A stretch of 60,768 bases of DNA, filler included, from Bipalium vagum (taxonomy: Eukaryota), in the NCBI GenBank assembly GCA_037834085.1. It is 3 parts of 3 records of this genome, joined end to end, with 100 filler letters (N's around TTAATTAATTAA, not from the genome) between each part and the next. Parts side by side here need not be neighbours in the genome. Positions count along the whole stretch, not along the records: positions 41,209 to 60,768 come from JBBMKC010000118.1; 2 more parts are not named here. The stretch is one strand, 5' to 3'. Position 1 is the stretch's first letter; every line of letters starts with the position of its first letter. A model generated the notes under the pieces. The model was not told where the DNA came from. It ran no database searches and saw only the letters and a list, made by a program, of their open reading frames with translations. The translations under genes and the position numbers were made by a program. Shown piece by piece: positions 27,917 to 60,768 of this stretch.

Positions 27917-28756
27917 CTATAATTTTAAACCACTATTAAACTTTTTGCTGGCAACATCATGAGACAAGGTTTTTCTGAACGTACCCAGCTTGACCAGTAA
28001 TTTATCAATCCATGAAATTTCGATGTTTTTAGTTTGATCCGGTTTGTTGATTTGAGTCAAATAAATCTGATTGATTTTTAAATTTTTTGTGATATGAATT
28101 TGACCTCTGTAATTATACCAAACTCCATCCCGTTCGATGAATTCGTCCAGACGTTTCAAATCTTTAAACGGAACATTTCCTTGATAACATCTTATACCGA
28201 AAGTCATGTCCAGGTATGATTCCCTTTCACAGCGTTCCATGCTGGTGATAATCAACCGTCTAATCGGATATTTGATGTTGAAATACATCCTAAACCCAGT
28301 GAACCACAATAGATATCGTAAATATCCTTTGGTAGTGATTACATCATTAATACTTCTTTCAAATTTGAATAATAAATTTTTACTATAAAGCGTTGGGTTG
28401 TTATATTTAATTAAAAATTGAGGCTCAAAATAATGAGGCAAGGCCATTTCGATATATTCTTGAAATTTTATTAGGTGATCAATACTATCATTATTGTCAT
28501 TTGACTGCTGTTTTGGTTTCATATTAACCAATGGCTTGTTTGAGTAAAGCCCATTAATTTCGTGTTTTTTACATTTTTGAAGAGATACTTTTGGGTAATC
28601 AATTTCATTTTTTGACAAAAAGTGGATTACTGATAGTGAATGACTTTTATCTGCTTCACAAGAAATTCCTTGATAACTACTGCTTGAGTTGGTAAATACT
28701 CTTAAATATGAAAGCGTTGTCTTATTCCTTAAAAATAGCATTGACACTATCTTCAT
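27917..28756 (-). CDS. C6orf136-like / DUF2358 (NTF2/SnoaL-like fold) protein, probably mitochondrial
   Basis: Intact ~279-aa single-exon ORF with ATG at 28756 and an R/S/L-rich, acid-free N-terminus. The core EMALPHYF..LYSKNLLF..TKGYLRYLLWFTGFR..RLIITSMER..WYNYRGQIHITKNLKI follows the C6orf136 pattern (ELPxLF..LYSxDVEF..TKGRxxY..LEVL..YDAYSTFYL) as recalled. Confidence 0.6.
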   Translation of the reverse strand: MKIVSMLFLRNKTTLSYLRVFTNSSSSYQGISCEADKSHSLSVIHFLSKNEIDYPKVSLQKCKKHEINGLYSNKPLVNMKPKQQSNDNNDSIDHLIKFQEYIEMALPHYFEPQFLIKYNNPTLYSKNLLFKFERSINDVITTKGYLRYLLWFTGFRMYFNIKYPIRRLIITSMERCERESYLDMTFGIRCYQGNVPFKDLKRLDEFIERDGVWYNYRGQIHITKNLKINQIYLTQINKPDQTKNIEISWIDKLLVKLGTFRKTLSHDVASKKFNSGLKL

Positions 28757-29859
28757 CAATACCTAAAATATTAGTTAATTATTATAAAGGTTTGAATTAT
28801 TTATTTCAACCAGTATTTAAACAATATATATATTATTAAATAAATGGTTATTTTATTAATAAATATCGAATAAATTGCAAATGTTTTAAAATATAATAAT
28901 ATTATTAATTTTAGTGAGAAATTTTTTATTACTATTGCGAAATTACCTTTAATATAATATTAAACTGTACTTTAAAAAAATGATTTTATACTATAAATAA
29001 TTTATAAAATTATACAAATTAAAAGTGTTTTTGATTAAAAACCTTAATATTGAATTTAAGATTTCCTTAATTTTTAAAATAAATGTCTTTAATTTATTTC
29101 TTAAACTATATTATCCAATTTGTTTGGATCCTATGCATATTCAATAAATAGTTATTTATTATATTTTATTGAGATTTACAGTATATTAACAACCGTTTAT
29201 TTTTATATTTTTTTATTAGTAGAAATATAAATAATTGTATTTGTGAAGATCATAACAGTGAAACTCAACGATGGACAACAAGAGATAAAGAATCATTTAT
29301 AAAAGATATTTATTCAAACTTTGATTTTATTTTTGATTTTATTTAGTATGATTTATATGATTTTAATTTTAATTTGTATCATGTATTTTAATATTTATAT
29401 ATTTTAGGTAAAGACTGATTTGTTTTAGCTGGTAATTAAATAATTCTGTCTTGTTTTCTGTAAGTCCTTACATAAATAAATTAAATAAAATTTACTCCAT
29501 ACCATTGTTGAGGTTCAACTCCTATCTTATAATTTCTGTAAATAAAATTTTGGCGAAAAATTAAATTTAAATAATAGGCTGGCTAATTAAAAATTTCGTA
29601 TTTTAATTGTTAATTTATTAATTTAAAATTAATTAAATAAACTTTAAATGTTATAATTTACCACAATCATTATAATAACCGTTGTTTATATTATTTGTCT
29701 TATTTTATTATAATTAATTTTAATAAATCGATTGTTTATGGTATGGAATAAGTATATACTTAAGGATTCACATAAAAAATAAACGGATAAAAGGAAATAA
29801 ATAAAAATAATGGATACACTGATTTCAATAATGTCATAAAATAATAATGATTAGAATGG

Positions 29860-41208: not shown

Positions 41209-41299
41209 TTTACCAATTATTTTTAACATGGTTGGTCATTTTAATAATAAAAACGTCAAATTATAAAGTGTCCAATTAATTTGACGTTGACTATATTGT

Positions 41300-41940
41300 T
41301 TATGATCTTCTGCTATCGTTCTGGGAACTGGTGGATTCAATCATGAAAATAGTGTTTGTTTGGAAGAAATAAAGTCATCGATGAATTTTCGGATATCTGA
41401 TACATTTCGAAAACTCTGTCCAGCTAAGGAATGTTGCATTGACCTGAATAAATAATAATCTGAGAACTCCATGTCTATTGAATAATCCACACGAGGAAGA
41501 ACATTACAGCCTAAATTGAAGATAATGTCCTGCGTTGCAGCAGTAACAATTTGCATTGTCATGAAGCAAAATGACTTTACGAAATTCCATGTCCAATAAA
41601 TGGTATTTTTATCAATTTCTTTACTATAACGTCTTAATTGATCACTGTAGCATTGTGCATTAATTGCTTGACCCAGAACTAACCAATGAATGCTTACTTT
41701 TAGGATTACCGTAATGAATCCAATTTTAGTTATCATTGACTTCAGTTTTTTGGTACTTTACAAATAGAGAAAGACATATTCTAATCGTTGACCAATATTT
41801 GATTTCGGAAAGATGGTGTGGTACTAAAATTTCAGGATTTTTGTCATGTCACGTAATAAATTTTTTTTTATATAATTAAAAAAAGATAAAAATATATGTA
41901 GTTTTAAAAATGAGATTTTAAAATTTATGCAAACACCCAA
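41300..41940 (-). mobile_element. Internally deleted mariner remnant
   Basis: GQAINAQCYSDQLRR..LPRVDYSIDMEFSDYYLFRSMQHSLAGQSF. Confidence 0.85.
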
Positions 41941-42018
41941 TACACAAAATTATTAACCAATCTTCTTTGAAAGAAATACTTTATAAGTATTGAAAGTTTT
42001 AATATTATTATTCAAGTA

Positions 42019-43236
42019 TTAGGTCATTAAGTATGAAATGCATTACTTTGTATGGTCATTTTTAAATTCTAATACCTCTGCGAATTTTTATTCTTAAATA
42101 ATAAACTTTGTTTTAATATTTAACTAAAGCCACACTTTCAAAAAATCAAGTGACATATTTTAGATAAATATATGATTTGTAATTTACTGTTTAATGGAAA
42201 AATTCAAAATTCTTATATTAATGGAATTCGAGTTCCGTAGAAAATCCATGATTGCTCAGACCGTCCGGAACTTAAAGGATGTCTTCGGTAGTAATACTCC
42301 TTTTCAAATCATCATCAGCCGTTGGTTTGAAAAATTCAGATATTGAGATTTTTGCTTGGAAAATCAGCCCCGAGAAAAACCAAAAATATCAATTTGCAAA
42401 GGTGAATTAAAAGCTTTCGTGGAAAAAAATCCCAGCCAAACTACCACAGATTTACCAACAAGGTTTGGTGCTTACGTCTCAACTATTTTGATTCATCTGC
42501 GACAAATTAATAAAGTCAAAAGACTCTACCGATGGATTTCATCGGATTGACAGATATCCATAAGAAAAAAATGGCTTCAATACAAGCACAAGAGTGACTC
42601 ATTTTTGCACCGTATTGTTACGTGTGACGAAAAGTGGATCCCCTATGACAATCGAAAGCGTTCTACACAATGGTTAGATGCAGATGAACCCTCTAAAACA
42701 TGACCACCGTTTGGTGGACAAGTCTTTAAGTGATATACCATAGTTTCTTGAAACCAAGTCAGTCAATCACAGCAGAGCTTTACTGCACTCAAATGGAAGA
42801 AATAATGAAGAATCTGGCAAAAAACAGCTGAAATTGGCCAATAGAGATAAACCAATTCTTCTCCATGACAATGCCGACCGCAAGTTTGCAAATCGGACTC
42901 AATTAAAAATTATGGAGATGGATTTGGAAACAATCGATCATCCTGCTTATTCTGTAGACTTTTCACTTACAGATTATTGTTTTTTCCTTAATTTTGACAG
43001 CAAGGAAAAATATTGCGCAGAGGCTGCTTAAGGTTCATTCACTCAATTTATTGATTCCCTCAAACCAGAGTTTTTCGATAAAGGCATTTCCGACCTACTA
43101 ACGAGAAGTGTCTTCTTTCTGACGGTGCATACTTCGATTGATTCCCTTTTTTTTTATTATAGGTACAAAATTTATTAAAATTTCTATTAACATATTTATT
43201 GATTCTAGAAAATAATTATACATTTCATGGCCCGTA
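42019..43236 (+). mobile_element. Near full-length decayed mariner element
   Basis: TA|TTAGGTC left end; MEKFKILILMEFEFR; RIVTCDEKWIPYDNRKR; LLHDNA; HPAYSVDFSLTDY. About 1.2 kb with frameshifts and stops. Confidence 0.9.
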
Positions 43237-43674
43237 TATTTTTATAATTCGTCATTTCATTAATAATTATATTTTAAATTCAATCAATTTTATTTAGTTA
43301 TCAGTTCCTTAAAGTTAAAAATTTCTTAAAATAAATTTCCCTCAGAGAAAAATTTTATTCTACAAAGGAATTGTTTTATGATCTATCTTTATTAACCTAT
43401 CTTTATAATCTTAATCTTGTGAACAATATAAATTTACTTTTCGAATATACGCCTCTCCACATTATTATTATTAGTAGTTAAAGTAGTATACATATATTAA
43501 TAGTTAGTCGTTGGATCAATTTAGCCATTACAAAGTTTTAAACAATAATAAAGTTTAAATATTTTTATTATTATTTGTCGTTTTTGAAAAAAAATTAATT
43601 TAAAATTCTTGATTTCAATTCTTTAATGCAAGAAATTGTTGTTGATGTATTTTCGTTAAAAGTTTTTGCTTCAG

Positions 43675-46600
43675 AAAATAAATTTCAGCAAACTTATGCT
43701 TGGACTGCATTAACAAGAGCATTAATTTTATGCAACGAGGCTTTCCACATTAAATCGTCTGACGATAAATCGATTTTGGATATTGATGAAAGTCTATGGA
43801 GATCATTCAACGATTGTGAGTCGGTCAGGAAATGGGGAGGATCCATTACACATTATAAGCAAAAAAATATTTGTTTGTTTGGACCAAATTATGACAATCT
43901 AACCAACTGTAAGGTAAACTTACTATTTCTACTAATTTATTGATTAAAAATAATGAAATTAAAATTAGTCTTCTTTTTCCATTTTTATTACTCTTATTAT
44001 TTTTCTTAAAAATTATTTTATTATTATTATTATTACCAGCTCTCAATTCATAAACTAAATGATGGAGACTCTAGATTCTTGTTGGTTCTTCGAGGAAATC
44101 CTCTTAATGTTTTGCAATGCTGTTCAACAATATTAATTGATGGGAAAGAAGAAAATATAAATTTGTGGAGTTCTCGAATTATTGAGTTTTATGAAGAAAT
44201 GAAGGAACGAAGTCAATTTGTTCAAGCATTGTGTGATTATAGAATCAGTCCGGAAATATTTCCCCCTGAGTAAGTAAATTGAAACTGAAATTTCTTTTGA
44301 AATAATATAATTGTAAAAAGTATGTTTGAGTTGAGATGGATATGTTTACGTCTCCGTGAAAGAAATCTTTATCATTAATTTTAGATCAAAATATGATTGG
44401 ATTTGAAGTTGCAAAATTATTTTATTTGTTTTTGAACGTTGATTAAATTTTAATAATAAATCCATTTAAAGTTATTTCTATGTTAATTTTCGTATTTTTT
44501 CAAATTTTTTAATTGAACAAAATGTAACGAATTTTCGTAAATTTAGCACGAAAGAAATTACCACTGATTGTAACAGTCGAATTCCGAGAAATGGATTGAG
44601 ATTTATTGGCATTATTTCATTTAACGACTCCTTGAATCCATCAATAGTATCATTTGTAGAATCGTGCGATAAATGTGGGATAAGATTGGTGTTAAATGCT
44701 CAAAAAAGTGAAGTTCCTTTAATCTCAAATAATAAGGTTTACTTTTTACTGTTTTTGAATAAAAGCTTGTTTATTGTTTGTTATTTTTACTAGATTGATA
44801 CAACAGTTCGCTGACATAATTTGCATTTTTTACTTGTTATAAATTATAATTATGAAAAAAAAATTTTAGATATGCGCTTATTTCAATATTACTAAACTAA
44901 TGCAATGTTTTAAATATAATTTAGCTAATAATTTTTATAACGAATAACTTTTAATATTAAATAATATTTTTAAATATTTTTTAGAATTCCTACGATTTAC
45001 GTGTGTTATTATTATTATTATTATTATTATCATTATTACTGAAGTATATTTATTAATTGACTATGAAAATTTTAAGATCATTTTTATTTTTAAAATATTA
45101 TATGATCTAATATAAATTTTAATGAAGATAATAAAATATTTAATTTTAGCAATTTTTTTTCAATAATTAATTGTAATTAATTGAAATAATTATCTCATAG
45201 TAAAATGAAATTTATTTATATTTTTAAAAAATTTAAATAGAAAAAAATATGGAGAAATGATTGATCATATTAATTTTTGGTTATAGGAAATGAAATCGAT
45301 AAAAGAACTTCGCATCATATCTGAGACTGCATTGAGCTCATATTCAAACAAAATTTTGTTAAAAATGATTGAAAACACAAATCTTGTTATTTGTCAAACT
45401 GATAGGAAAAAAATACAGAGTCTGATAGATTTTTGTCGATATAAACAGAAATATATTGTTGGAGTGATAGAAAATGATAGTGAATATTTGCCAACTCTTT
45501 TATCATCCCATGTCGGTGAGTACATTTCCCACATATGAGACTGGATATAATCAGCTATTTTGACTCCAGGGATAATCACTCAATCTAGATCCAATAATCT
45601 TAGCAAACAAATCGCTGACGTTCGTGTAATGGATGACTTGTTGTCCTTGGTTCAAGCCATCAAAGAGTCGAGAAAAATATTTCGAGTGCTCACTATCATG
45701 ATCAGCATGGTGCAATATCCTAAACTAACGTTTTTATTTGGCTTCTTATCTTTTACATTTTTAGGTGTACCATTGGCTATAAACTTAAATTTAATTCTGG
45801 CTTTTGAGTTATGTTTTTTGGTAAGGATTTTTCAATTTTTATTTTTAAAAAATGCATAGTTTTTATTCTCGAAATTCTCTTATTTTTGATTATAATTTAC
45901 AGTAAGAAATAATCAATAATCTTGTCAGTTTTATTTAATAAAAATATTAAATAATGACCTACAAGTAATGAACTTATTTTAATCATTTATATTGTGTGTA
46001 CATTGAAAGTGAGCTTTTTTTAAAAATAAATATTAATAAAAATAATTTATTTGCTTAAGCGAATAAATTTATTTTATTCAGGTTGAATATTTTGTTTAAA
46101 ATATTTAGTAAAAACTTATATTAACAGCAATATAATTTTTTCAGATGCTTTTAGATGGTGGAAAATATAGCAAATAATCACAATTTGCGCGAAGTGATAA
46201 TGCTTCATTTCATTATCAGAAAATCAGCTCCTGAAACCTATAGAATACTTGTTAAGGCTTATGGCAACAATGCTTTTTCTTAAGGGACTTATGAAAGATG
46301 ATGTGTACATTTCAGAAAGGATTTAAGTGTGGAAAATAAAAAACTTCCCGGAAAACAGAACGGTTTGAAGATTTGGAAATATACGTGTTTAAAGATCCTA
46401 TCAAAATCAATATGAACTTGCAAAATCAAAGAAAATGCTCAATTAAAAAATGCAAAGGATGTGTTTTGAAGTAAAAATTAATGTAAAACGTCAATTGGCA
46501 CACTTCGTGTTTGCAGGTAGTTCATTTTCCCCGGGTTTCTAGTGTTAATAAGTCAACGTTTACAAACCATGTGGAAGAACTTTAATAAAGGAAAAGGAAT

Positions 46601-49067
46601 AGCTTACAAACACAAGCGGAGACACATCTAAAAACGTAAAACCACCTGAAATTTTGCTAGTTCGACAAAGAAAACGTTTTCTGTATCAAATTGTAATGAG
46701 TGATGAAAAATTGTTTTATTTTGATAAATCTAAATGCAGACAAAAAATGTAATTCTTTGCTGAGCCATTCAGAGCAACTTCAAACAAAAATTTCCATTAA
46801 AAGAAGGCTATGTCATGAATTCGGTGGGATCATAAAGATGTGAATCATCATAAGGGGATACAACCTGATCAAAGTTACAGAGTACCTGTACAGAGAACAA
46901 ATAATGCGTGAGCCGGAAATTGCATCAAAAACTATCAGAATCTGACAAAAGACGACATAAACTGATTTTGCTGCATGACAATGCTCGGCCATATGTTACA
47001 AAACGAGTGACACACTCACTTGTACAGAAAGCAATCATTTTTTTAATTGAAGAATATATTTTAAAATCATATATACTTCATATATGTTGTCAAATTTTTA
47101 AAAATAAATTTTAACAGAAAATCAAAAAGATCATATATGATTTTATCAACTATATTTATAAACTTTAAATTATTAAACTAATTTTTATCTTTATTATAAT
47201 CAATAATTGTAGTCCTGAAGAGAAACATTAAAATTTTCATTAGCAAAAGTTATAAAAATTTATTAAAAAGTTTGCAAAAAACCCATTTAAACAAAATGGG
47301 GCCAAACCAAATTTCAACCAATCTTATAATTGTGTAAAATTGATAAATCATACTTTTTACAAAGCAATCAAAGTAATACAAGTCTAAAAATTCTATTCAA
47401 TTGATACACTCAACATCACCTGTAATGTTTCAACATTGTCTCAGGTCTTCACGTGAAATAAAAAAATTTCTCAAATTACGAGCAAAAATATTAAATATTT
47501 CGCAAATGTTTCGAACTAAATAAGAAATATTTAGTTCCCAAAACCCACGAGATAATCATGTCAGAAAATAAAACCAAAAAAAATACAGAAAAGAAAGTAA
47601 AATACAATGGGATTATTAAAAATCGATTATCGTTACTTAAAGTAATCGGAGTCCATAAAGTACCCTCAAATTTACAAGTTTGATAGGGAGCCCAGAGCAA
47701 TCCTTATAATAATTGGGCATATCAGTTATTTACCTTTCATTAAGTTTTCAAAAAAATATCAGTTTCGCTTTTTTGAAATTACTCAGTCACACTGGAAGCC
47801 TATTATTTGCAACAAACCCACTAAGGGTAAAAAAAGAGTCTCTACTGTCACTGAGGAAGAGAGAAAATAATTTACTCCTAAATTCCTAATCTGGGAAAAA
47901 TTAATTAATAGCGTAAGCCTATTTTAAAATCAACACAACATTGTCTATGTTAAAAGTTTATACAACAGTTTTTATTTCGTGATTCTAGAAGATTTATAAT
48001 ACTTATAACTAAAGATAATAACAATAAATAATAATAAAAGTTTTGAAATCTAAATTGAAATTTGTTAACTTGATTGATAAAATATATATTTGAGAAAAGG
48101 ATCATACGCGCTATGGAGTTATTTGTGTGGAGTGATTAAATCTTAGGCAGAACTATCCCTTTGTCAATCTCTACTCAACATTATTTAATTTTTTTTTCAA
48201 TAAGTTTATTATAAATTATTATTAGTAGTAACGGTAATATGAATTATTATTTTTAATGCTCTCATATTTAACTATAAGTAAAACAAAAATAATTTTAAAA
48301 ACCGAGATCATTATTTTTATACTCTTATTAGTATTTTTATTATTTTATTATTAGTTCTTATAATTGGTAATTTTCAACTCTTTTATTGGACTTTAGATAC
48401 CAACAATATGTGTATTTTTGCAAAAGTTATATAATAAGAATGTCATTGTCCAAACATGGAAATTTATGGATTTCATGGTAGTTCTTGAAATCGGGTCCAT
48501 ACAATTAGTCGGTTCTATTTTCTCTTATATTGCAGTTTTGACACTCCACGGTTTTTGGCCACGAAAACTTTTGATGATTCGAAATTTGTGGTATTTGCAA
48601 ACGATTAACAGCATGGCCGATTCGTATGGACAGGAATGGGTTTGGGAGCAATTTGATTTTCCAAAATCATGATTCTCCTTTCCAATATTTAGACATATTC
48701 CCAAAGAATGAATCTCAATCTTTTAGCGTCATCTTCGTTATTCGTTACGCTTTGTATATTGCAAATCGTAGGTATTTTGACAACGGCAACCGATCTTGTT
48801 TCAAATCCGCTCAAATGTTTCAAGAATTATAAAATGATCTTGTCCATCACATTTTGTGGAGTTTTGGTTGCCTCATTCGTCTTCGGATTATCTCGGCTGA
48901 GAATCGTGGAATTGTGCCCAGTGGAGTAATTTTAAATTGATTTAAATCGACTTTGATACTATAATCGTTTTAGATGGATCTACTGTCTATTCTCTTTACC
49001 ATTCGCGCTCTACATGATTGTGTTCTTTAAAATAAAACACCTGATCGGGTTCGAAAATCCAAACTGA
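43675..49067 (+). CDS. Highly divergent Na+/K+-ATPase alpha (P2C) subunit-like protein, 3' portion (N-domain to C-terminus); probable pseudo-ATPase
   Basis: Eight GT-AG exons join in frame: 43675-43913, 44040-44269, 44547-44736, 45287-45515, 45570-45820, 48397-48639, 48693-48925, 48974-49067 (TGA). Collinear with ATP1A: WTALTRALILCNEA, LSIHK, CSTILIDGKE, LRFIGIISF, SKQIAD, ESRKIF, GVPLAI, IGSIQ, GFWP, DSYGQEW|TYSQR. The 5' exons, including DKTGT, were not found. Confidence 0.85.
46080..47010 (+). mobile_element. Decayed mariner inside the ATPase-like gene intron
   Basis: LREVIMLHFIIRKSAPETYRILVKAYG, IVMSDEK and LILLHDNARPYV motifs. Confidence 0.85.
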
Positions 49068-49415
49068 CCAATGCCGGTTCGTGTGGCCTTGTTTTCGTTT
49101 TCTTACTTTAGATTTTATTCATCTTAGCTTGGAACCTTGGCAACTTGCTCGGTATCAGCACATTTTATTTTATTTGCTCTTTCTTTTGCATGCCAGAGAA
49201 TTTTCAGTTTTCCTTGATAAATATACTTTTAACTTGAGAGATCTCGTTTTTCTCGCAAATAATAAAGTTCGATTTAGAACGACATTAGAAATCATCATTG
49301 TCTTAAATAAAAACTACGAAAACCAATAGTCGGCTCTGTTCAGTGAAGATGAAATAAAAAACTGATGATATTAAGGTATCAATCCTAAAGAAAAATGTTT
49401 ATTTAATTAGATATA

Positions 49416-50761
49416 CAGTAAAATCTCGTTACTATGCCACCCATCGGGACCGAGAAAAAGTGGCATAATAACAACAGTGGCATAATAGCGAGGGTTTGTA
49501 AAAAAAGACTATTTTTTTAAGTTACTATTAGCTAATCCAAAGACTTCAAAAATCGTCGGCTGACGCATTTTCTTTTGTCGGATTCTGTTTATCTCGTTAT
49601 CTAACCTATCGCACGCTAACATAACATCAGTTTTACCGCTGTTCTGTTGCATAAACTTTCGAACAATAATCCATGCACGCTGGGCTTCCTCGAAAGGAAC
49701 AACTTCCTCCTCGACAATTATTATTTTATTATCTTTGTCTTCCAACGGTTCCTCGCTGCACAGCACCTCCTCCGCAATCTCTTCTAACGTAAATGATCCA
49801 CCAGTCGCAAGGCGCTCGTCAGCATTAAGAAAATCCAACAGCTCAATCTCTTCGTTTTCATACATTTTTTCTTCTTCCGGCAGAGATTCCCAAATCTCGA
49901 GCAGCTCATTATCCTCTGGCTCAGTTTGGATTTCTGCTTTACAGAACTTGGCCTTTGAAAAACAGTTCCTAATTGCTAATTCGGTGACTTTCTCCCAAGC
50001 ACGTCGAATGACATGTAGAGCGTCAAGCAATGTAAACTTAAACTCTTTTCCTTCATCCATTGCTTCAAGTCGACGACACAGCAAAAGCTTTTTGTAGTTA
50101 CGTTTGAGAATCTCTATAATTCCCTGATCCATTGGTTGAGAATTGAATTTCCAATTACTAGAAGAGGAAATTTTTCGTTACCACTCATGTTTGCCCCAAC
50201 TAAAAGTGTAATTCTTTGCTTGCTCTTCTTTCCTCCTGTGCATCGCTCACCCCTGAAAGACATGGTCTTATTTGGAAGAAGCTACCAGAAAAGTCCTATC
50301 TCGTCTAGGTTGAAGACGTCGTTTGCGCTAAACTTTTTTAGTAAAGGCTGGAGAACCTGTTGTTTCGACTCAAGAAGAGATTGCGAATTTACTGTTCCAG
50401 CTTCACCCTGTACTGTCTTAAACACAATGCCGTGGCGCCTCTTAAAGTTATCTAGCCAACCGTCACTTGCCATAAAAATTTGGATGTGCATCAACTCGGC
50501 CATTTTTACAGCCTTTTCCTTGATAAGATCTCCGCTGACAGGCAGATTTGCTCCTCTTGCCTGCTTCAACCACATGAGTATGCACATTTTTAGTAGTAAA
50601 ATATAATTTAAATTTAAAAAATCATAACATCATCATTATTTAATGGTGGCATAGTAGGGCGGGTTAGGGGTGGCATAATAAATTTATTTTGTAGTAAATT
50701 TAGTCTGAAACGTAGAAAAGTGGCATAAAAGCGAGAGTGGCATAGTAACGAAATTTGACTG
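49416..50761 (-). mobile_element. pogo/Tigger (TIGD4/6-like) transposon, deletion derivative with both TIRs
   Basis: TA|CAGTAAAATCTCGTTACTATGCCAC ... GTGGCATAGTAACGAAATTTGACTG|TA, with subterminal GTGGCATA repeats. Encodes a CENP-B-type HTH (PVSGDLIKEKA..ASDGWLDNFKRRH), VFNLDEIGLFW and QPMDQGII; the central DDE region is deleted. Confidence 0.93.
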
Positions 50762-51779
50762 TATTTATATTTTTTCTTGCTTGATTACAAAATGAAACCA
50801 CTAAGATATACTATTCATTGACTTTAATATTTGTGCATTTTTAAGATGGTTACAGTAGAATAGTGATATTTTGTAGAATATGAAAACGTAATGAGTGTTA
50901 TATCTAGAAAATAATTAATTTTGGCCTTGTTTTATTTTTTATTATGATTGGTAACATTTTAAAATAATTTTGATCATGTTTAGTTTTCAATCCATGTTTT
51001 TTTCAAACCCACTTAGGGTTTTCATGTCTGTTTTATAATCACAACTAATCATGCTCACTTTCCAACCTGGGTTTTTTCCAATTAATTAAAGGACAATTAA
51101 AAAACAATGTATTAATAAAATTTATTTAATAAATCAAAGACGATATTGGAATCTTTCTCAAGAAAATTATGTCTCCAAGTCTATTTGGCCAGGTAAGACT
51201 TCAGTACCGTTGCATACATTCCGCTCAAACATTTTGTCTTACTTTTTAATGTTTCCAGATAGATTCAATTCTCTGGGTATTGGCACCGGTCTCTTTGTTT
51301 ACAATATTATGTTTGTGATTGACTTTGCGATGAGTAGAATTTTAATCCTTAGCCAGTTGACAATAGGCTTTCCACTTATCACTCATTATATATGATCCTT
51401 TTTAAACTACAGCTCTTATAATGAGTAACAAAGTAGCAGTACTTCTATTGTTGACTAAGATCAAAAATATTTTCAGGCATAAAAGTTTATATAACATTTT
51501 ACTTAACTTCTTGATGAGAACTTTTTTAAATCCATTGGTGACAAATTATGTGAATTTTACATATTACGTAATTGTGTTTTGTTTGAATAGATACTTTTTA
51601 TAACTTTTACGTCTTTTCAATATGTAGTAAAGAAGAATTAACTATCGATGAAATTCAACTGTGTGATAAATAATATTGAGTATTCAGACTTGATTAAGAA
51701 AATATCTGACATAGATAAGGAAAATCAAGTAATGATGGCATTTAATCATCAAACCAGTATGCCACTGCGTAATGTGTTA

Positions 51780-53220
51780 TTACGATTTTTAGACATACAG
51801 TGAGTACCGATGGAGTCAAAACTAACAAGAAGGTTGAACAAATTGTGAAAGCAAAACCACCTTGTTGCGTGTCTCAGTTGAGTTCATTTTTGGCTTGACA
51901 AACTATTACCGGCGCTTTATTGCCCATTATGCTTCATTGGACGGAACAATACCACAAGAGTTTTCAAGTACTGAAGAATAAACTATGCCAAGCACCAATT
52001 CTGGATTTTCCAAGCAGAGATCGTTTTTTTATTTTGGTTACAGATGCAAGCCTTGGAGCGATTGAATCTGTTTTGAGTCAGCTGAAGGAAGATGGAAATG
52101 AAACAGTGATTTCTTATGCCCCTAGACACTTATCAACTCGTGAATTCGGATATTGTTTCATCAGAAAAGATCTCTTATCAATCTACGAATTTGTTCTCCA
52201 TTTCAAGCAGTTTTTATATGGAAAACAGTTCATTGTGAGAACGGATCATAAAGCTTTGGTTTTTATGAACACCACGAAGCACCCAGTTAGTTCACAGCTT
52301 CAAACTTGGCTAGTTAATCTATCAGATTACAATTTTGAACTGAGATATAGAAAAGGCCAGGATCATAGTAATGCTGATGGCCTATCCAGAATTTCCCATG
52401 TGGTTTGCTCTCGATGCCAAACGAAGCATGAACAAACCAAGAATGAGAAGCCAAAAACAAAATACATCAGTGCCGTTCATAATATTACACCTCAATTGGA
52501 AAGAATAAGAAGCGAACAGAAGTCCGATAAACTGATATTTGGATTTATTCAATATCTTTCAGAAGGGAGGAGAGAATACCCTGAAAAGTTGAAGAATAAC
52601 AGTTTCTATCCTTTGAGAGATAGATTGGATGTTATCGATGACTTGTTGCTCTTATCAAGAAACGAACGAAATCTTATCACTATCCCAGAAAAATTTATTG
52701 ATGATTTTATGATGGGAACTCATACCGACTTGTATCATCTTGGTAGCAAGAAAATATTTAACTATCTGAAAGATCATTACTATTGGCCATTGATGTTGAA
52801 TTCAGTTAAACTATGTATTAAACCCTGCTATATTTATGCCAAGAGAAAAATTTATCAAACGCACACTAAAGAAATCCTTATACCGAGAAGAAACTCACAT
52901 TTCTTAGACCAGATCGTCGTAGATATAGCCTTTATGGAAAAAGCAGCGGCACACTAAAGATAAATAGTTATCATTATTGGCTGTTTTAGCAAACTAGTGA
53001 GTCTATGCGCGATGGGCAAACTTGATGATCAATCCATTTTAAAGGCAATAATGAACAATTGGATTTATAAATTTGGCAAGCCGAAGAGTATTTAAAGAGA
53101 TCGAAGGAAGAACTTTTTGATTTCTTGGATTCAACAAAAATGAAAAGATCTCAATATCCAATGTGAATTCAGTTCACCTTACCAGCACCAGTCCATTGGT
53201 CTAGTCGAGCGAGCAATGAC
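51780..53220 (+). mobile_element. Gypsy LTR retrotransposon pol fragment (RT end, RNase H, integrase)
   Basis: LTNYYRRFI; FILVTDASLGAI..VRTDHKAL..YRKGQDHSNADGLSR; integrase H-H-C region (HTDLYHLG..YYWP..C); IVVDI; SSPYQHQSIGLVER. Confidence 0.92.
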
Positions 53221-53229
53221 TTTTTATCT

Positions 53230-53640
53230 CAAAGCAGTACTACAATATCATCCAGTACCCTAAGAAGAATCCTCAAAAAATATTTTATTCATGGTTACAG
53301 AAGCATAAGGAAACCTTTCCTATCAATAAGACAAAGACAAAAGATAATGTTACGAACCAACAAGCATAAGGACTGGTATTTTAATAAGTTCAAAAATGTC
53401 TTCAGTAACGAAAGCATTTTCCAGTATTATAGCCAGCATGTAAAATATGGCGTAAATTATGGACACCAAATGACAAAGGCAAACCAGGAAATATACACCA
53501 AACTATGAGTCACGGACCTAAAATACATGTATGAGGATGTTTTTCTTCGAATGGTGCGGGATTATTAAAGAAGGTTCCATGGATGCCAAATTATATTAGA
53601 GAAGAATAGTAAATAACATTGATGTCGTTGCTTAATCATG
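53230..53640 (+). mobile_element. Tc1 fragment
   Basis: VFSNESIFQL and HGPKIHV*GCFSSNGAG motifs. Confidence 0.7.
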
Positions 53641-54717
53641 AAAATATTATTTGTAAGATGTCAATATAATGAAAGGGTATGTGATATATTTTGTCAATAA
53701 TTTTGGACAGATTACGAACCAAAACCGAGTTCTAACGTCTTTCGATCAAACCATGAACGTTCAACACAACTGAGTAGTCAAATAATATTAACAGAATAAT
53801 ATAAAGTCCTGTTACAGAAGAACAGCTCAATATTACAAAATATTAACTAACTGATAATATAACAAAACGAATTAACATAACCCTTATAAACGAACAGAAA
53901 ATTAAACTTATATTTCAAATAAATAACAATCAAATCATAAACAATATTATAGATGACTATTTGCAGTTAATTATTTTAGTTCAAGTTTCCCTAACAATCT
54001 ATCTCATTAAAGATCAGTTACTCGTTAGACATTAAACGAGTTCGGCACCTGAGCAAAATCCTTAAGAGCCACAACATACAAAGTCTTAACAAATGATTAT
54101 ATGCAAAATCTTTTATAATAAATTAATTTTGATGAGATTCTCAAAAAACGTTTTATCAAGCAACGTTTAATATTTTATAATGTTTCAATAACTTTAATTA
54201 TTTGCAGAGTAGTTCGCTCCTTTCACCATAATATTGAATAATAAAGCGTTGTTAACAATTTGTTAACTGCAAAAAATGATGAAGTTCTCGAAAAATGACT
54301 TTTGTCAATTATTTATATACTATAATTTCTGATGAGCCGAACAATCCAGGGATTCGATAAAAAATGTTTAAAATAATCAGGTCTTATAAATTTTTCGCCA
54401 AATTATTAATCTTATTTATGAATCTTATGAATCATGCTATATTTTGTCATCATTGCAGTTATTAATTAACTTTTAAGATAATCTTTTCATTATAACTGAT
54501 TGTCAATAAATTGCTATGATTTATTTATTAATTAAGTAATATTATTATCAATATTATCACAGTATTTATTGTTCTATTATCATTTTTGATATTTTTAAAA
54601 TAAATACATAAAATAAATTTTTCTTTATTAAAATTATGAACATTAATACTTCGTTAATGAAACATAAATGATAAAGCCGGTTTTGTTTATTCATTGTATA
54701 TTTTCAAATCCTAAAAC

Positions 54718-57301
54718 ATGGATAATATTATAAATGGTTGGTATACAGAAATGTCTGATGATTGGGCTGGACAAGCAACAAGTTTAAAAGTTAAGGAGAT
54801 CTTAGAAAAAAAGAAAACTAAATTCCAGGATCTGTTAATATTTGAAAGGTATTTTGTTCGTAAATATTATTGCTTTTAAATTATTAAACTCTGAAGCACA
54901 AACCACGGTAAGGTGTTAGTGTTAGATGGAGTAATTCAACTGACAGAAAAGGACGAATTTCTCTATCAGGAGATGATGTCAATGTTACCATTAAATTGCC
55001 ACCCCAATCCTCAAAAGGTATTGATAATTGGTGGAGGCGATGGTGGTGTCATGAGAGATGTTGTGAAACATCACAAAGTTAAAGAAGTTATTCAATGTGA
55101 AATCGATGAAGTTGAATTGAATGTTATTAAAACATTTTAAATCTGAGAATAGGACGTTGTCAACCTAAGTAAAAAGCATTTGCAATTTATGGCCATCGGA
55201 TACGAAAGTGACAAGGCTCAAATAGTCATTGAAGACGGATTCGATTTCTTAAAGAATCATAAAAACGAGTTTGATGTAATAATAACGGATAGTACAGATC
55301 CCAGAGGTTTTAGTTTGTAAAATTAGGCTTTTATTATATATTTTTACAGGTCCGGCTGAAGTGCTCTTCCAGGAAAATTATTTTAGATTGATTTTTGAAT
55401 CTCTAAAAGAAGATGGTTTAATGTGTTCTCAAGGTACTTTTTCATTTAATTGTCTTTTAAATAAGACATATTTCATAAGAAATAAAAATAAAATTTTTTT
55501 AATTGATAATTGTAATTAAATTTTTGTTTATTTATCTTTAAAATTAATCAATCTACATCGATAACTGAAACACGATAATTTTGTAAATTTATTTCATTTA
55601 TTATGAAGGTCAAAATATTTGGTTGGAACTGCCCCTCATAAAACTGGTGCTCAGAATATGCAAATCAATTTTCCCGGTGGTGAAATATGCTTTTGGCTGC
55701 GTCCCTACGTACACAAATGGCCAAATCGGATACGTGCTGTGCAGTAAAAATCCGGTAATTCTGTTGAATATTTTTATGTTACAAATTTCGTATTGTCCTT
55801 TTTCTTCCGAAAAATTTCATTTTTTCCTGTTACGATAAATAGTGGTTTCAGTGAAAATTGATTTTTATTTTCTGTTTATCTGTGGCTTGATAATATAAAA
55901 ATATTGATTGTTAAAAATACTTTCTACCGTAAGGAGTCAATTTCAACAAGAAATCGATTTTATTTGATGCAAAAAGAAAATTTCTAAATTAAATGTAATA
56001 TTTAAATAAAAAATTTATTCTTTTGAAAAATTGAAAGCTATCAATAAAGTAGCTGGGTAGAAAAATAGCGTGAAAACATAAGGTCGAATTTTCAAATTAA
56101 AAAAATTGTCATTGGTATCTGTTTGGTTTTCGTCTGGTTTCGTAGTCGATGACATCCGTCCAATCGATAAAAATTTGTGTCATGGGAGAAATGTTGAAGT
56201 TGCTTGTTTTAGAATAATATACTCACCTTCCGATCAATAGACAATAATCGATAATCACACAACGATTCGAGAAATGATGATTTTATAGTTTTAACATTAG
56301 TGATTTCTAAAAAATTGGCTAATTTGGTAATCAAATAAACTTAATCTGGACTAAATTTCATGGCTACAGACGGTGTAGATTAGCCAGACTTTACTAAATT
56401 ATTATTTTTCACTTATTATTACTGATTAATAGTATAATGATTTCTAAGATATGTTTATCAGTTCCTAGGTAGTAGGTAGTAAATCACGCTACAAATTAAG
56501 TCATGGTTTTTACTTCACTTACTTTTGTGACGTAACATTCTGCCTAATATCAATCTAAAAAAATTAACTAATAATTGGGATTTAGAATATTTTCATTTTC
56601 AGTATTAATTTGAATTTTTGATCAATTATCTGGAAATGTGTCTTTGAATAATTTGATCTATATTAAAATCATTGCAAGTCTTGTAATTACTTTTAAATAT
56701 TGACGAAGTATTAATGAGAATCATTAAATATATTTGTTTTTTAAAAAAATATTTATTTCCACAAGGTTTCCTTTTTTAGCACTTCTATTCTTCCGATTTT
56801 TGTAACTATTTTCTCCGTTATTTTTTATTAACCAAATCTGGGACACAAGTTCGATTGTTTTATCAAGTTCAATCTGTCTTCATGTTATTAAGAATGTTCT
56901 ACTCGGTCTGTCTTAAGTAATATATTTATAATAATAACAATTATAATGTGAATGACAATAATAGTAATATTCAAGTTTATAAAGCTTAAAATTCCCTTCT
57001 TGGAACTATTTAGTCATACTTTGCCAAACTTCTCAGCTTTGCGTTAAATTTAAAATGGTCTTTCATTTTTATTTTATTTTATCCAATTATTAATTGCTGA
57101 ATCGAAATAGAAAACGAATTTCAAAGAACCACTTGAAGAAAATTTACCGTTCCAAAAGGAGCTGAGACATTATTCACCTGATGTTCACCGGGCCTCATTT
57201 GCGTTGCCCTATTCCATCCAAAAGGTTCAATTTTAAATTATAATTAATACAATAATTGTTTCCGACAATTGTTTCAGGAGATCGATGAAATAATCTATTA
57301 A
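54718..57301 (+). CDS. SRM: Spermidine synthase (aminopropyltransferase), 7 exons
   Basis: Exons 54718-54848, 54897-55110, 55153-55306, 55350-55433, 55609-55754, 57111-57224, 57278-57301 join in frame. Motifs: [84 protein letters not shown]. Confidence 0.95.
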
Positions 57302-57984
57302 TTTCGTTTTTGAAAAGGTTAACATGTTTTCTTTTTTGTATTTTTTGTTTTAAATAATCAATAGTTGATTGATATTTTTTATTATCGATCGTTTTTTCAA
57401 AAAACCAACGGTCAATGTTCAGGGTGAGTAAGCTTGAGATAGGTTCCCGACTTGGAAATTCATTGAGTTAAAGATTTTTGCGTTGCGGAGAGTTTACTTT
57501 AATGTCGGACATGAGCATATTTTTCTGTGTCCTGCTCACAGTTTCTATTGATCTTAGGTATCTGTAAGTATGAGTAAAATTAGAAACAATGTTGTGGAAT
57601 TTTTTATCGAAGTAAAATTTTGATTTTTCCAACCATTCAAGCTTAGTTTGTTCGCTGATCTCATCTTAGGTCTTTTTTTTTGAAAAGAAGTATTACTTTA
57701 TCCTGTATTAGATCTTGAATAAAACCTTGTTTAATTAATGTATATATGTTAGTTAATAATGTGCAAAAAGTAAGATTTCCATTATGTTGCAGAAATAAGG
57801 AAATCTTATTTGACCAAATTTGATATGAAAATAACAATGAATTAATTACTATAAAAAACTTCTATAAATGCAACGAAAAATATTAAAATTTACAACAATT
57901 AAATATAAATAATCTCTAGCATGAAAACTATTAACTTTTAAATTAAATATTCCTGAAATACATTACAGATTTATGTATTAAAAG

Positions 57985-58734
57985 ATGGAAGTTTCTCTGC
58001 AAAAAATATCAAATCTTTTATCTCAAAAATTTTCAACATCATTTATTGTAGAAAGTAAAGATTTAGATATAACATTTAAGTTAGTTACCCCACTAAATCT
58101 TGATCCAAATTTTAACTATGAATTAGCTCTAATTTATTTCTTAACTTATAATTATATTTTTAATTTTACTGAAAAAAACAATGTAATATATGTAACTGTT
58201 ACAGAATCAAAAGGAAAAAAAGAATCTCTAAAGATAACTCCCGGAGCATATGAAATTTCTTATATATCTGCATATATTGAGAATGGACTTAAAAGTATAA
58301 AAGAATTAGAACCCCTTAAAAAGAAGAGTCTTATCTAATATTTAATGGTAATCCAATTTCTTCAAACTGTGTAATGAAAATTTTCCTAAGGAAAATTCAA
58401 TTGCTGAATTGTTAGGATTTGAAAATAAATCTTATAAAGAAGGTTGTTATGAATCAAAACCAGTTAAAATTTCAAAGACAAAATTATGTTTGATTGTAAT
58501 ATTGTAGAAGGGGGATTTTATAATGGTAGAAGAACAAATATTATTTTTGATTTTCCTTCAAATACTGTTCCAAAATGATATAGAATCATTGAAAGATCAA
58601 AATTCCTAATCTATCGTCCTTTACTTACAAGAAATATTTCTGAAATAAAATTTAAGATATTTGATAATAACAAAGAATTAGTAAATTTTAATGGAGAAGA
58701 AATTAGTTTTACTATTCATTTAAAACAAGTTTGA
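57985..58734 (+). pseudogene. Polinton/Maverick-type minor capsid protein (penton), frameshifted
   Basis: Reconstructed PLNLDPNFNYELALIYFLTYNYIFNFTEKNN..LKITPGAYEISYI..NSIAELLGF..DCNIVEGGFYNGRRTNIIFDFP..VPK*YRIIE..LIYRPL..ISEIKFKIFDNNKELVNFNGEEISFTIHLKQV follows the characteristic Polinton mCP pattern. Several frameshifts in 58320-58490 and a TGA at 58576. Confidence 0.8.
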
Positions 58735-58783
58735 TATAAGACAAAATCGTATTTAAAACAAGTTTAAAATTTAATTTAAAAAA

Positions 58784-58975
58784 ATGAATGGTTGTAACTT
58801 TTGTTCTGATTTCTTAAATCATAATTCTATAAAAATTAATAATCATAAAAATTTACTTTTTATATGTGGTAGATTTGGACATTTACAAAGAAGTTGCCCA
58901 ATGGCACAAAGAAACGTCAATATAGTTAGTGAAACTCAAAGTGATAATGAAGAAACTTTGGAAATACATGTCTAG
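58784..58975 (+). CDS. Small ORF with degenerate CCHC zinc knuckle (element-borne)
   Basis: LFICGRFGHLQRSCP fits CX2CX4HX4C except for the first Cys; N-terminal CxxC. Starts about 50 nt after the penton stop. Confidence 0.45.
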   Translation: MNGCNFCSDFLNHNSIKINNHKNLLFICGRFGHLQRSCPMAQRNVNIVSETQSDNEETLEIHV

Positions 58976-60007
58976 AATTGAAAAATTAGAATTAATGTTA
59001 AGAGAAGAATGTCTAAAAATTGATAGATTAAAGGAACAAGAAAAAGAGACCCACACACCAATAACAACAATTAGAGAAGAAAATAGATTACAAAGAAATA
59101 TAAACATAGCTTCAAAATGGATAAAGGGTGAAATAGCTATCGATAATGTCGAAGAAGTAAAACACTTTTTAAGATGGAATACCGTTCCTAAAACCTGGAA
59201 TTAGAATTGCTACAAAAAATAGGAAGAGAATGATCAACAGACGAGAAAACGTTTTATATTCATTATAAGTATCCAAATTATTTAGTAATAAAAAATGTGG
59301 TAGCACTCAATACATCTGTAGAAGAAATATTAGTATTGTTACACGAACAATTGGACAGAAAAGTTAGACTCACATATTACGATTACCACTCAATAACGAT
59401 AAAAGTTTATTGGAAAGTAGAGTGATTCCTGGTTGGTATAATTTGATAAATTATGAACCAGAAGAAGTAATTACAGGAGAAATGATTTGCACTTTTAAAG
59501 AATTAAGTGACGAGGAAAAGAAGTACATGAATAATATACCAGTAAAGTTAAATCAAGAATTAACAAAAAATAATGTAGATCATGTAAAAATTAAACTCAT
59601 ATTAGACGAAATAGCACAATTACCAATACCTATCAAAATTTTAGAGAAAATAGTAAATAAATTGAGGAATTGGATAACCTTTTCAGATTTACACCGAAAA
59701 GAGTTAACCTTAATATTAGCTAAATAAGGCCAAAGTCTCAGACAGTCTAAGCGAACTTATACACTTATTAAACTTGATGTAGTGATGCCAGATAATACAG
59801 TAAATCATTACGAAATTCCTTTCTTAAGTAAAGCTAAAAAATTGAGAAATATTGTAATGAAACAATTAACATTACCTATTATTCCATTAATTTAGTTTTG
59901 GTAAGTTTATCGATGATGATGAGTATTTTATTGATAATGGCTGTAATCCTAATAAAAGTAATATTGTTAAAATTTCATATTCAAGTTCCATTATGATATT
60001 ATTTTGA
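58968..60007 (+). pseudogene. Disrupted ORF with two predicted ubiquitin-like (beta-grasp) domains
   Basis: The ATG overlaps the previous stop (ATGTCTAG). Repaired translation gives FYIHYKYPNYLVIKNVVALNTSVEEILVLLHEQLDRKVRLTYY[G]LPLNNDKSLLESRV and IKLDVVMPDNTVNHYEIPFLSKAKKLRNIVMKQLTLPIIPL/FSFGKFIDDDEYFIDNGC, both matching ubiquitin hydrophobic spacing. Confidence 0.5.
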
Positions 60008-60038
60008 TGATATTATTGATTTAACTTCTAAATTTCAG

Positions 60039-60659
60039 GAAACAGATATACAATCAACGATAAAACCATTGGATGATTTTCGATCGGATGGTGAGGCTCA
60101 TAGCTCGAAATCCTTCGATAAATTGATAAATGAGTTGGCACAAGATTTTGCTAGTCCCGATAATGTGGAAGAAGCATGGGATAACACTGAAAACAAAGAT
60201 GTAGAGATTGTTGAAATTGATAAACCCGCAATATTTAAACGTTATTGGCTAACAGATATAGACGAAGGAGTAATACCAGAGTCAAAACTGGATAATAAAC
60301 ATCACGAAGTCATTCCCAATGCGAAACCATCAACCATTTATTTGGAAGAAAATGATTATGGCGATTTTATACAAACAGAAAAAGTGTCTGATGCCGATAC
60401 AAGCAATCGACAACAATCGAACGTCATATTTAAAGATAAAGCAATAACTGAGAAACCAGTTCAATACAAAGAAGAAAACGATTTGACTTCAGTAATACCC
60501 ACAATAAACGAGACAAATGCTGAACATAAATCGAAAAAGCAAAACCAATCGCCGAGTACGTACCGCGAAAGAAAAATGTCAAAAAAAGGATGCGTTAAAT
60601 CTCGCTCAGCAACGAATCCAATTTCGAATGGCTCAACAGTTATCAGAAGATGTAAATAA
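60039..60659 (+). CDS. Acidic, low-complexity ~200-aa ORF of unknown function
   Basis: Open from 59997 to 60659 with no in-frame ATG near its start (track start is TTG). Preceded by TTTCAG at 60033-60038, a possible acceptor. Confidence 0.45.
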   Translation, partial: ETDIQSTIKPLDDFRSDGEAHSSKSFDKLINELAQDFASPDNVEEAWDNTENKDVEIVEIDKPAIFKRYWLTDIDEGVIPESKLDNKHHEVIPNAKPSTIYLEENDYGDFIQTEKVSDADTSNRQQSNVIFKDKAITEKPVQYKEENDLTSVIPTINETNAEHKSKKQNQSPSTYRERKMSKKGCVKSRSATNPISNGSTVIRRCK

Positions 60660-60689
60660 TAAATTAGATGTAGAGAAGGAACCGTAACA

Positions 60690-60698
60690 ATATTATTA

Positions 60699-60768
<70 letters not shown>
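60690..60768. repeat. (ATT)n microsatellite at window end
   Basis: Run of ATT units to the end of the window. Confidence 0.95.

Follow-up and report, generated by a model that had tools for sequence, protein, structure and literature searches.

A likely Gag remnant with predicted ubiquitin-like units behind a likely Polinton-type gene fragment in Bipalium vagum

The locus and its left flank

The window, by which we mean the whole stretch of 60,768 nucleotides that was analyzed, was taken from the Bipalium vagum assembly GCA_037834085.1 and joins three parts of that genome end to end. Its last part (positions 41,209 to 60,768, from JBBMKC010000118.1) carries a decayed penton-like gene, probably of Polinton type, followed by a broken long frame that spans 58784-60659 and has its ATG at 58784 (Table 1). 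The frame is interrupted seven times, namely by frame breaks near 58967, 59197, 59381, 59893, and 60000 and by stops at 59231 and 59725.

Copies in the public runs X1 (which shares 58% of words) and X3 show small indels relative to the window at 58967, 59197, 59382, and 59893-59895. Among the indels listed, these coincide with four of the five frame breaks of the window, the break near 60000 lying outside the coverage of those rows. Because the X1 and X3 copies have indels at the same places, the four breaks at 58967, 59197, 59381, and 59893 look like decay specific to the window copy. As to the stop at 59231-59233, each of the 11 X1 contigs listed deviates from the window inside the stop itself.

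Table 1. Features of the penton-like gene and the broken frame behind it, in window positions
Positions	Strand	Feature	Basis
57872..58734	+	Decayed penton-like (minor capsid-like) gene, Polinton-type; start approximate; several frame breaks and a stop	
58784..58855	+	ATG and 24 codons of the penton-side element, in frame into the knuckle	X3 contigs
58856..58858	.	Junction of penton side and putative Gag fragment; codon of the first knuckle Cys in relatives	Contig loose ends
58856..58897	+	Last Gag CCHC zinc knuckle, truncated, without its first Cys	Pfam, blastp
58898..59233	+	Linker plus the presumably helical portion of unit 1; one stop and two frame breaks	
59234..59455	+	Predicted ubiquitin-like domain 1, broken at ~59381	C-terminal half, profiles; N-terminal half, P0005 unit 1 only
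59456..59760	+	Linker and predicted four-helix domain of unit 2; stop at 59725	P0001-P0004, L003 model
59761..59990	+	Predicted ubiquitin-like domain 2, broken at ~59893	Profiles; fold via L003 relative
59997..60659	+	Acidic low-complexity tail, 220 aa, after a further frame break	Position as in relatives

The penton-like gene has Atlas features at 0.97 to unnamed clusters of animals and Preplasmiviricota. We presume it to be a penton from a motif pattern; Pfam, the PDB, and the viral contigs gave no match, and its best PHROGs match (E 0.006) is of unknown function. The penton-like part is a fragment of ~1 kb with single-copy DNA to its left, because the X1 depth stays at ~26-35 (single-copy) on one contig of 4.4 kb that ends at 58022, whereas from the bin 57872-58027 onward it climbs into the thousands. 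Directly behind the gene, 58784-58855 opens a small ORF that has a CxxC among its first codons and may be a Polinton-side gene because in X3 it continues into other sequence.

Six-frame Pfam searches of 49001-57903 returned a Gypsy pol piece, DNA transposases, and a spermidine synthase, and not a single Polinton core family; the integrase found there pairs with an RNase H in Gypsy pol. pPolB, ATPase, protease, major capsid gene, and terminal repeat are all lacking nearby. An accessory gene of a Polinton would lie within an element with core genes, and the broken frame is not so placed in the window, which ends at 60768.

The flank holds several features of its own. A Gypsy RNase H-integrase remnant lies at 51899-53200 (+), a Tc5/DDE_1 (pogo-type) transposase at 49509-50629 (-), and a host spermidine synthase gene of several exons at 54.7-55.8 kb (+). 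An ISXO2-like (IS1595) transposase domain at ~51.2-51.5 kb (-; E 3.5e-9) is probably part of a Merlin-type element. Two adjacent open frames of 65 and 90 aa with one stop between them occupy approximately single-copy DNA at 57195-57665 (-), where Pfam and PHROGs provide no name. Further to the left, an open frame of 281 aa at 27917-28762 (-) is without a match in Pfam or PHROGs.

Gag-type relatives and the predicted ubiquitin fold

When the middle piece of the window was searched with phmmer against 1.84 billion proteins, seven matches at E <= 0.001 were obtained (P0001-P0007), one of which (P0006, a repetitive unrelated protein) was dropped. A search with an alignment of P0001-P0004 led to six loci (L001-L006) of 1.4-3.5 kb each, all from one metagenome data set. 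A repeated unit, consisting of a helical and a beta-grasp domain by prediction, occurs in six of the seven phmmer proteins and in the six metagenome loci. These relatives are ~25-40% identical to the window and have a GC content of 39-45%, versus 28% in the window. A word-based protein search yielded only P0007 (582-2000 aa, top 7996 candidates scored), the others nothing. P0007, P0005, A3, and two pieces of the penton side were also scanned against viral contigs, and P0007 against metagenomes, in each case without a match.

Every relative with upstream context (P0007, L001, L002, L004, and L006) is a Gag. In L006 the units are preceded by Retrotrans_gag (E 1.3e-5, above the cut-off) and by knuckles (E 9e-14). 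In P0007 (949 aa), a Gag domain (Retrotrans_gag E 0.008, under the cut-off) is followed by a CCHC knuckle, a single unit, and then an acidic tail. Four of the six loci (L001, L002, L004, and L006) reach back to the knuckles; the contigs of the other two start later. The order of P0007 is collinear with the window in tblastn (unit, E 3e-11; knuckle, E 0.087; tail, E 0.11), and P0005 (332 aa) carries two units at the same spacing as in the window. Only L003 is long enough to show what follows: its unit 2 is succeeded by an acidic proline-rich tail, a BCL2-like stretch, and a fusion glycoprotein (Monjiviricetes_fusion, PF24664, E 8e-32). The BCL2-like stretch was recognized by eye only and is without a Pfam or PDB match. 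No reverse transcriptase (RT), protease, integrase, or long terminal repeat (LTR) was seen in the six short loci.

Two features had been passed over by the first-pass annotation, namely the knuckle at 58856-58897 and the acidic tail. The piece 58775-58972 reaches Pfam zf-CCHC_6 at E 4e-4 (under the cut-off), and in a small blastp comparison the knuckle matches L002 (E 1e-6), L006 (E 8e-6), and P0007 (E 7e-5). The tail is placed as are the acidic tails of P0007, L001, and L003 and is repeated in X1; its tblastn similarity to P0007 (E 0.11) is not significant. Between them, 58898..59233 has no significant match to the Gag-type relatives and is assigned solely by its position relative to L002, L004, L006, and P0005, and 59456..59760 is 34-41% identical to P0001-P0004.

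The ubiquitin-like peptides quoted in the first-pass annotation are present in the window where it had placed them, and none of 14 window pieces is assigned to a ubiquitin family by Pfam. We describe the units by a profile of relatives, A6 (nine natural rows, without any window sequence), in which the repeat unit comprises a helical domain and a second domain of 80 residues. Units 1 and 2 align within it almost without gaps, at an identity of 8-16% only. Against 2678 window pieces, three matches fall below E 1 (59368-59724, E 1.3e-10; 59891-60004, E 1.8e-9; and 59728-59892, E 2e-5), the next best being at E 1.3. In the PDB the profile has 54 matches at E <= 10, of which 46 are ubiquitin-like or UBX domains, with ubiquitin-fold chains reaching E 5e-4 at best.

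The expected beta-grasp fold was supported by structure prediction for unit 2 of L003, an intact relative. Its model (pLDDT 84, pTM 0.74) places four helices ahead of a beta-grasp arrangement. Searched with Foldseek, it has 196 matches at E <= 0.001, those listed all being ubiquitin-fold, and viral ubiquitin-like proteins stand on top of the BFVD matches. By VIA, the BAG6 Ubl is found at Z 11.0 (78 aligned residues, rmsd 1.8) and Rad23 at Z 10.5; many rows tie with these, a difference within 1 Z counting as a tie. Unit 2 is accordingly labeled here as a predicted ubiquitin-like (beta-grasp) domain, with the fold taken from the intact relative and not from the window's broken protein.

For unit 1 the picture is more mixed. 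The earlier claim of tandem ubiquitin-like domains is upheld by A6 for both halves of unit 2 and for the C-terminal half of unit 1, but the N-terminal half of unit 1 (59234-59380) is weak. Two profiles missed it, and the score it obtained with a half-domain profile was reached by 103 of 943 scored shuffles. In pairwise comparison it matches one of six targets (P0005 unit 1, z 3.5, 0/500 shuffles). The model of P0005 is of low confidence (pLDDT 48); Foldseek with it returned nothing at E <= 0.001, VIA gave generic helical matches only, so that we assign the helical domain to no named fold, and the Atlas structure rows of unit 1 fall under the bar. Judged by these comparisons, the support for unit 1 falls short of that for unit 2.

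One could read this as a lineage in which only unit 2 is ubiquitin-like, the fold of unit 1 having been lost by decay or divergence, as the two negative profile searches, the five negative pairwise tests, and the never confident unit 1 model would have it. However, in the relatives the two units can be aligned with hardly a gap, a unit-1 profile of the relatives matches the unit-2 piece of the window (E 0.001), and with profile A2 all six PDB matches of the first unit are ubiquitin-fold chains, each weak (E 0.6-1.3). We regard this reading as improbable.

The helical spacer that had been proposed between the two domains is likewise to be redrawn: the helices are real, but the spacer is a domain of the repeat unit itself. 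The observation that neither domain ends in a conjugatable GG stands, with zero GG in five window pieces. GG is also absent in the frames of P0005, L002, and L003, and the sole GG of P0007 is residue 67. The Gly-Gly at the domain end that marks conjugatable modifiers (ubiquitin, SUMO, NEDD8, and ISG15) is not present. The A6 column three before the conserved Gly, which corresponds to Ile44 of ubiquitin, is E, V, K, or L. Because this column is not conserved, a plain ubiquitin mimic is disfavored, and the ubiquitin decoy suggested earlier is doubtful.

The junction near 58857

The similarity to Gag starts at ~58857, within the last knuckle; the codon 58856-58858, where the first Cys of this knuckle would stand, encodes another residue. 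Other copies part at this very place. Four X1 contigs and two X3 contigs have loose ends at 58858, with other sequence in front, and three X3 contigs follow the penton side up to 58856 and then run into other sequence. Of the three X3 contigs that cover the knuckle, two lack a connection to the penton side; the X3 records 18 and 19 match from 58858, have ~230 other bases in front, and account for 25 of the 28 depth units at 58915. No X1 or X3 piece bridges the junction among the pieces listed; 711 loose ends and 2993 pieces lie beyond, and X1 contigs that cross the junction may be among them. Because the one X2 contig that runs across it is identical to the window and has a depth of 2, we take it that the junction exists in the reads and that this contig is not an independent second copy. 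In at least two of three X3 contigs and in four X1 contigs the ORF is not linked to the penton, which for organism C is the outcome that the first-pass annotation had itself named as refuting its reading. Nor does the penton side match any of the six metagenome loci by tblastx.

We consider it likely that the frame is the broken C-terminal half of a Gag, probably of an Env-bearing Burro-like Gypsy element, which came to lie behind a 1-kb, likely Polinton-type scrap via a one-off junction at ~58857. Its parts would be the last CCHC knuckle, two units (each a helical domain and a predicted ubiquitin fold), and the acidic tail. The parent would be an Env-bearing Gypsy element, although no RT was seen; the junction may have arisen from a nested insertion or a deletion, without amplification. 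The window copy would be inert and make no protein.

Alternatively, a Polinton-type element of the host may have acquired the C-terminal half of a Gag, in frame with one of its start codons, and multiplied it as cargo, with the window holding a truncated and decayed copy. The junction is indeed in frame behind the ATG at 58784 (random chance being one in three). The two sides have comparable summed depths in X1 (4403 at 58778 and 3988 at 58915, where depth is no copy number), and the other copies diverge to a similar degree on either side (~8-15%). Nematode Mavericks, moreover, bear Ubl cargo (10.1101/2022.07.12.499685). Against these points, the knuckle is cut at its first Cys, X1 and X3 contigs show other sequence before 58858, X3 contigs coming from the penton side continue differently, no listed piece of either run bridges the junction, and no other Polinton gene lies nearby. 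We hold such a capture to be unlikely, and we are equally doubtful that the junction was amplified in the host. If the capture were real, a gene would have passed from a retroelement with an Env to a Polinton, and the Ubl-bearing cargo of Mavericks might have such a source; were the junction amplified, it would demonstrate that a Polinton had acquired a retrotransposon domain.

Least plausible by far is the proposal from which the analysis departed, namely an undescribed native accessory gene of a Polinton that serves as a ubiquitin/SUMO decoy or as partner of the adenain-type protease. The ORF does lie directly behind the penton-like gene on the same strand, and the fold predicted for its L003 relative is a beta-grasp. 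Yet all relatives with upstream context are Gag polyproteins, the similarity begins at a break point inside a truncated knuckle where the contigs part, the Ile44-equivalent column (in ubiquitin numbering) is E, V, K, or L, and the domain ends are free of GG.

Comparison with known systems and a proposed role

The probable Gag fragment is best compared with Burro (GYPSM1), giant Gypsy-like LTR elements of planarians, in whose Gag polyproteins Ubl domains have already been reported (PMC6431247). The order given there is Gag, two or three knuckles, MATH, a Ubi2/SUMO-like motif, BCL2, a mononegavirus-like Env, protease, and pol (PMC6431247). Between them, L006, L002, L003, and P0007 show a comparable succession of Retrotrans_gag, CCHC knuckles, Ubl, and a mononegaviral-type fusion glycoprotein, and decayed fragments are described for Burro too (PMC6431247). 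Retrotrans_gag followed by CCHC knuckles is apparent in L006 and P0007, with only a truncated last knuckle in the window. The mononegavirus-like Env is apparent in L003, one of six loci being long enough; the window ends earlier. The likeness to Burro is one of domain order.

There are also differences. The Burro review gives one Ubl motif (PF11976), whereas here the unit occurs twice (once in P0007) and escapes Pfam. L002 and L006 lack a MATH domain between the knuckle and the Ubl, and P0007 ends after its tail, unlike the 5,000-aa polyprotein of Burro.

A Ubl domain on a Polinton would not be unprecedented because in nematode Mavericks cargo genes carry them, namely on WASP proteases and KRMA kinases (10.1101/2022.07.12.499685). 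Both cases concern low-identity, non-conjugated, modular Ubls on a mobile element, with control of protein abundance as the role proposed for the nematode ones. The nematode Ubls, however, are described as single, N-terminal, on enzymes, and linked to Mavericks in many copies, whereas those found here are internal, tandem, and Gag-borne.

Polintons, Mavericks, and adintoviruses resemble the locus in its penton-like gene at 57.9-58.7 kb, and no Ubl gene appears among the Polinton accessory genes in the available portion of PMC8502044. The locus differs from the elements described there by the missing pPolB, ATPase, protease, major capsid gene, and terminal repeat nearby, and its Ubl ORF traces to Gag. 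PMC11161782 names ubiquitin only in its references. In the literature searched, we found neither the capture of a Gag by a Polinton nor a tandem helix-plus-Ubl unit, though the Burro domain maps may hold a tandem.

Integral (type II) Ubls such as those of BAG6, Rad23, and UHRF1 share the beta-grasp fold and the missing C-terminal GG, and tandem Ubls such as ISG15 and Rad60 are a further class for comparison. Across both classes the identity is 10-24% only and no family stands out; they also differ in that here a four-helix domain precedes the Ubl.

In intact elements, the Ubls could be built-in, non-conjugated modules by which the Gag product has its turnover controlled or is docked to proteins of the ubiquitin system, in the latter case via a surface other than the Ile44 patch. 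We put this at about even chances. It is proposed by analogy because integral Ubls are among the top fold matches, because of the MSFT-1 Ubl result (10.1101/2022.07.12.499685), and because Burro carries ubiquitin- and apoptosis-related domains.

What appears to be new is the helical-plus-ubiquitin unit itself, missed by Pfam and seemingly present, singly or in duplicate, downstream of Gag in several divergent retroelements that bear an Env. The Burro-type design would then have a wider spread than we found in print, and the A6 profile may serve as a tool for finding such elements. L001-L006 are six diverged copies in one metagenome; L003:1-3465 (GC 39-45%, as in the whole set) looks like a Burro-type element in which a Gag tail with two Ubl units, the stretch likened by eye to BCL2, and the fusion glycoprotein follow consecutively. 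The ENA contig of P0007, at 14,848 bases, may hold a near-complete element, P0007 itself ending after the acidic tail.
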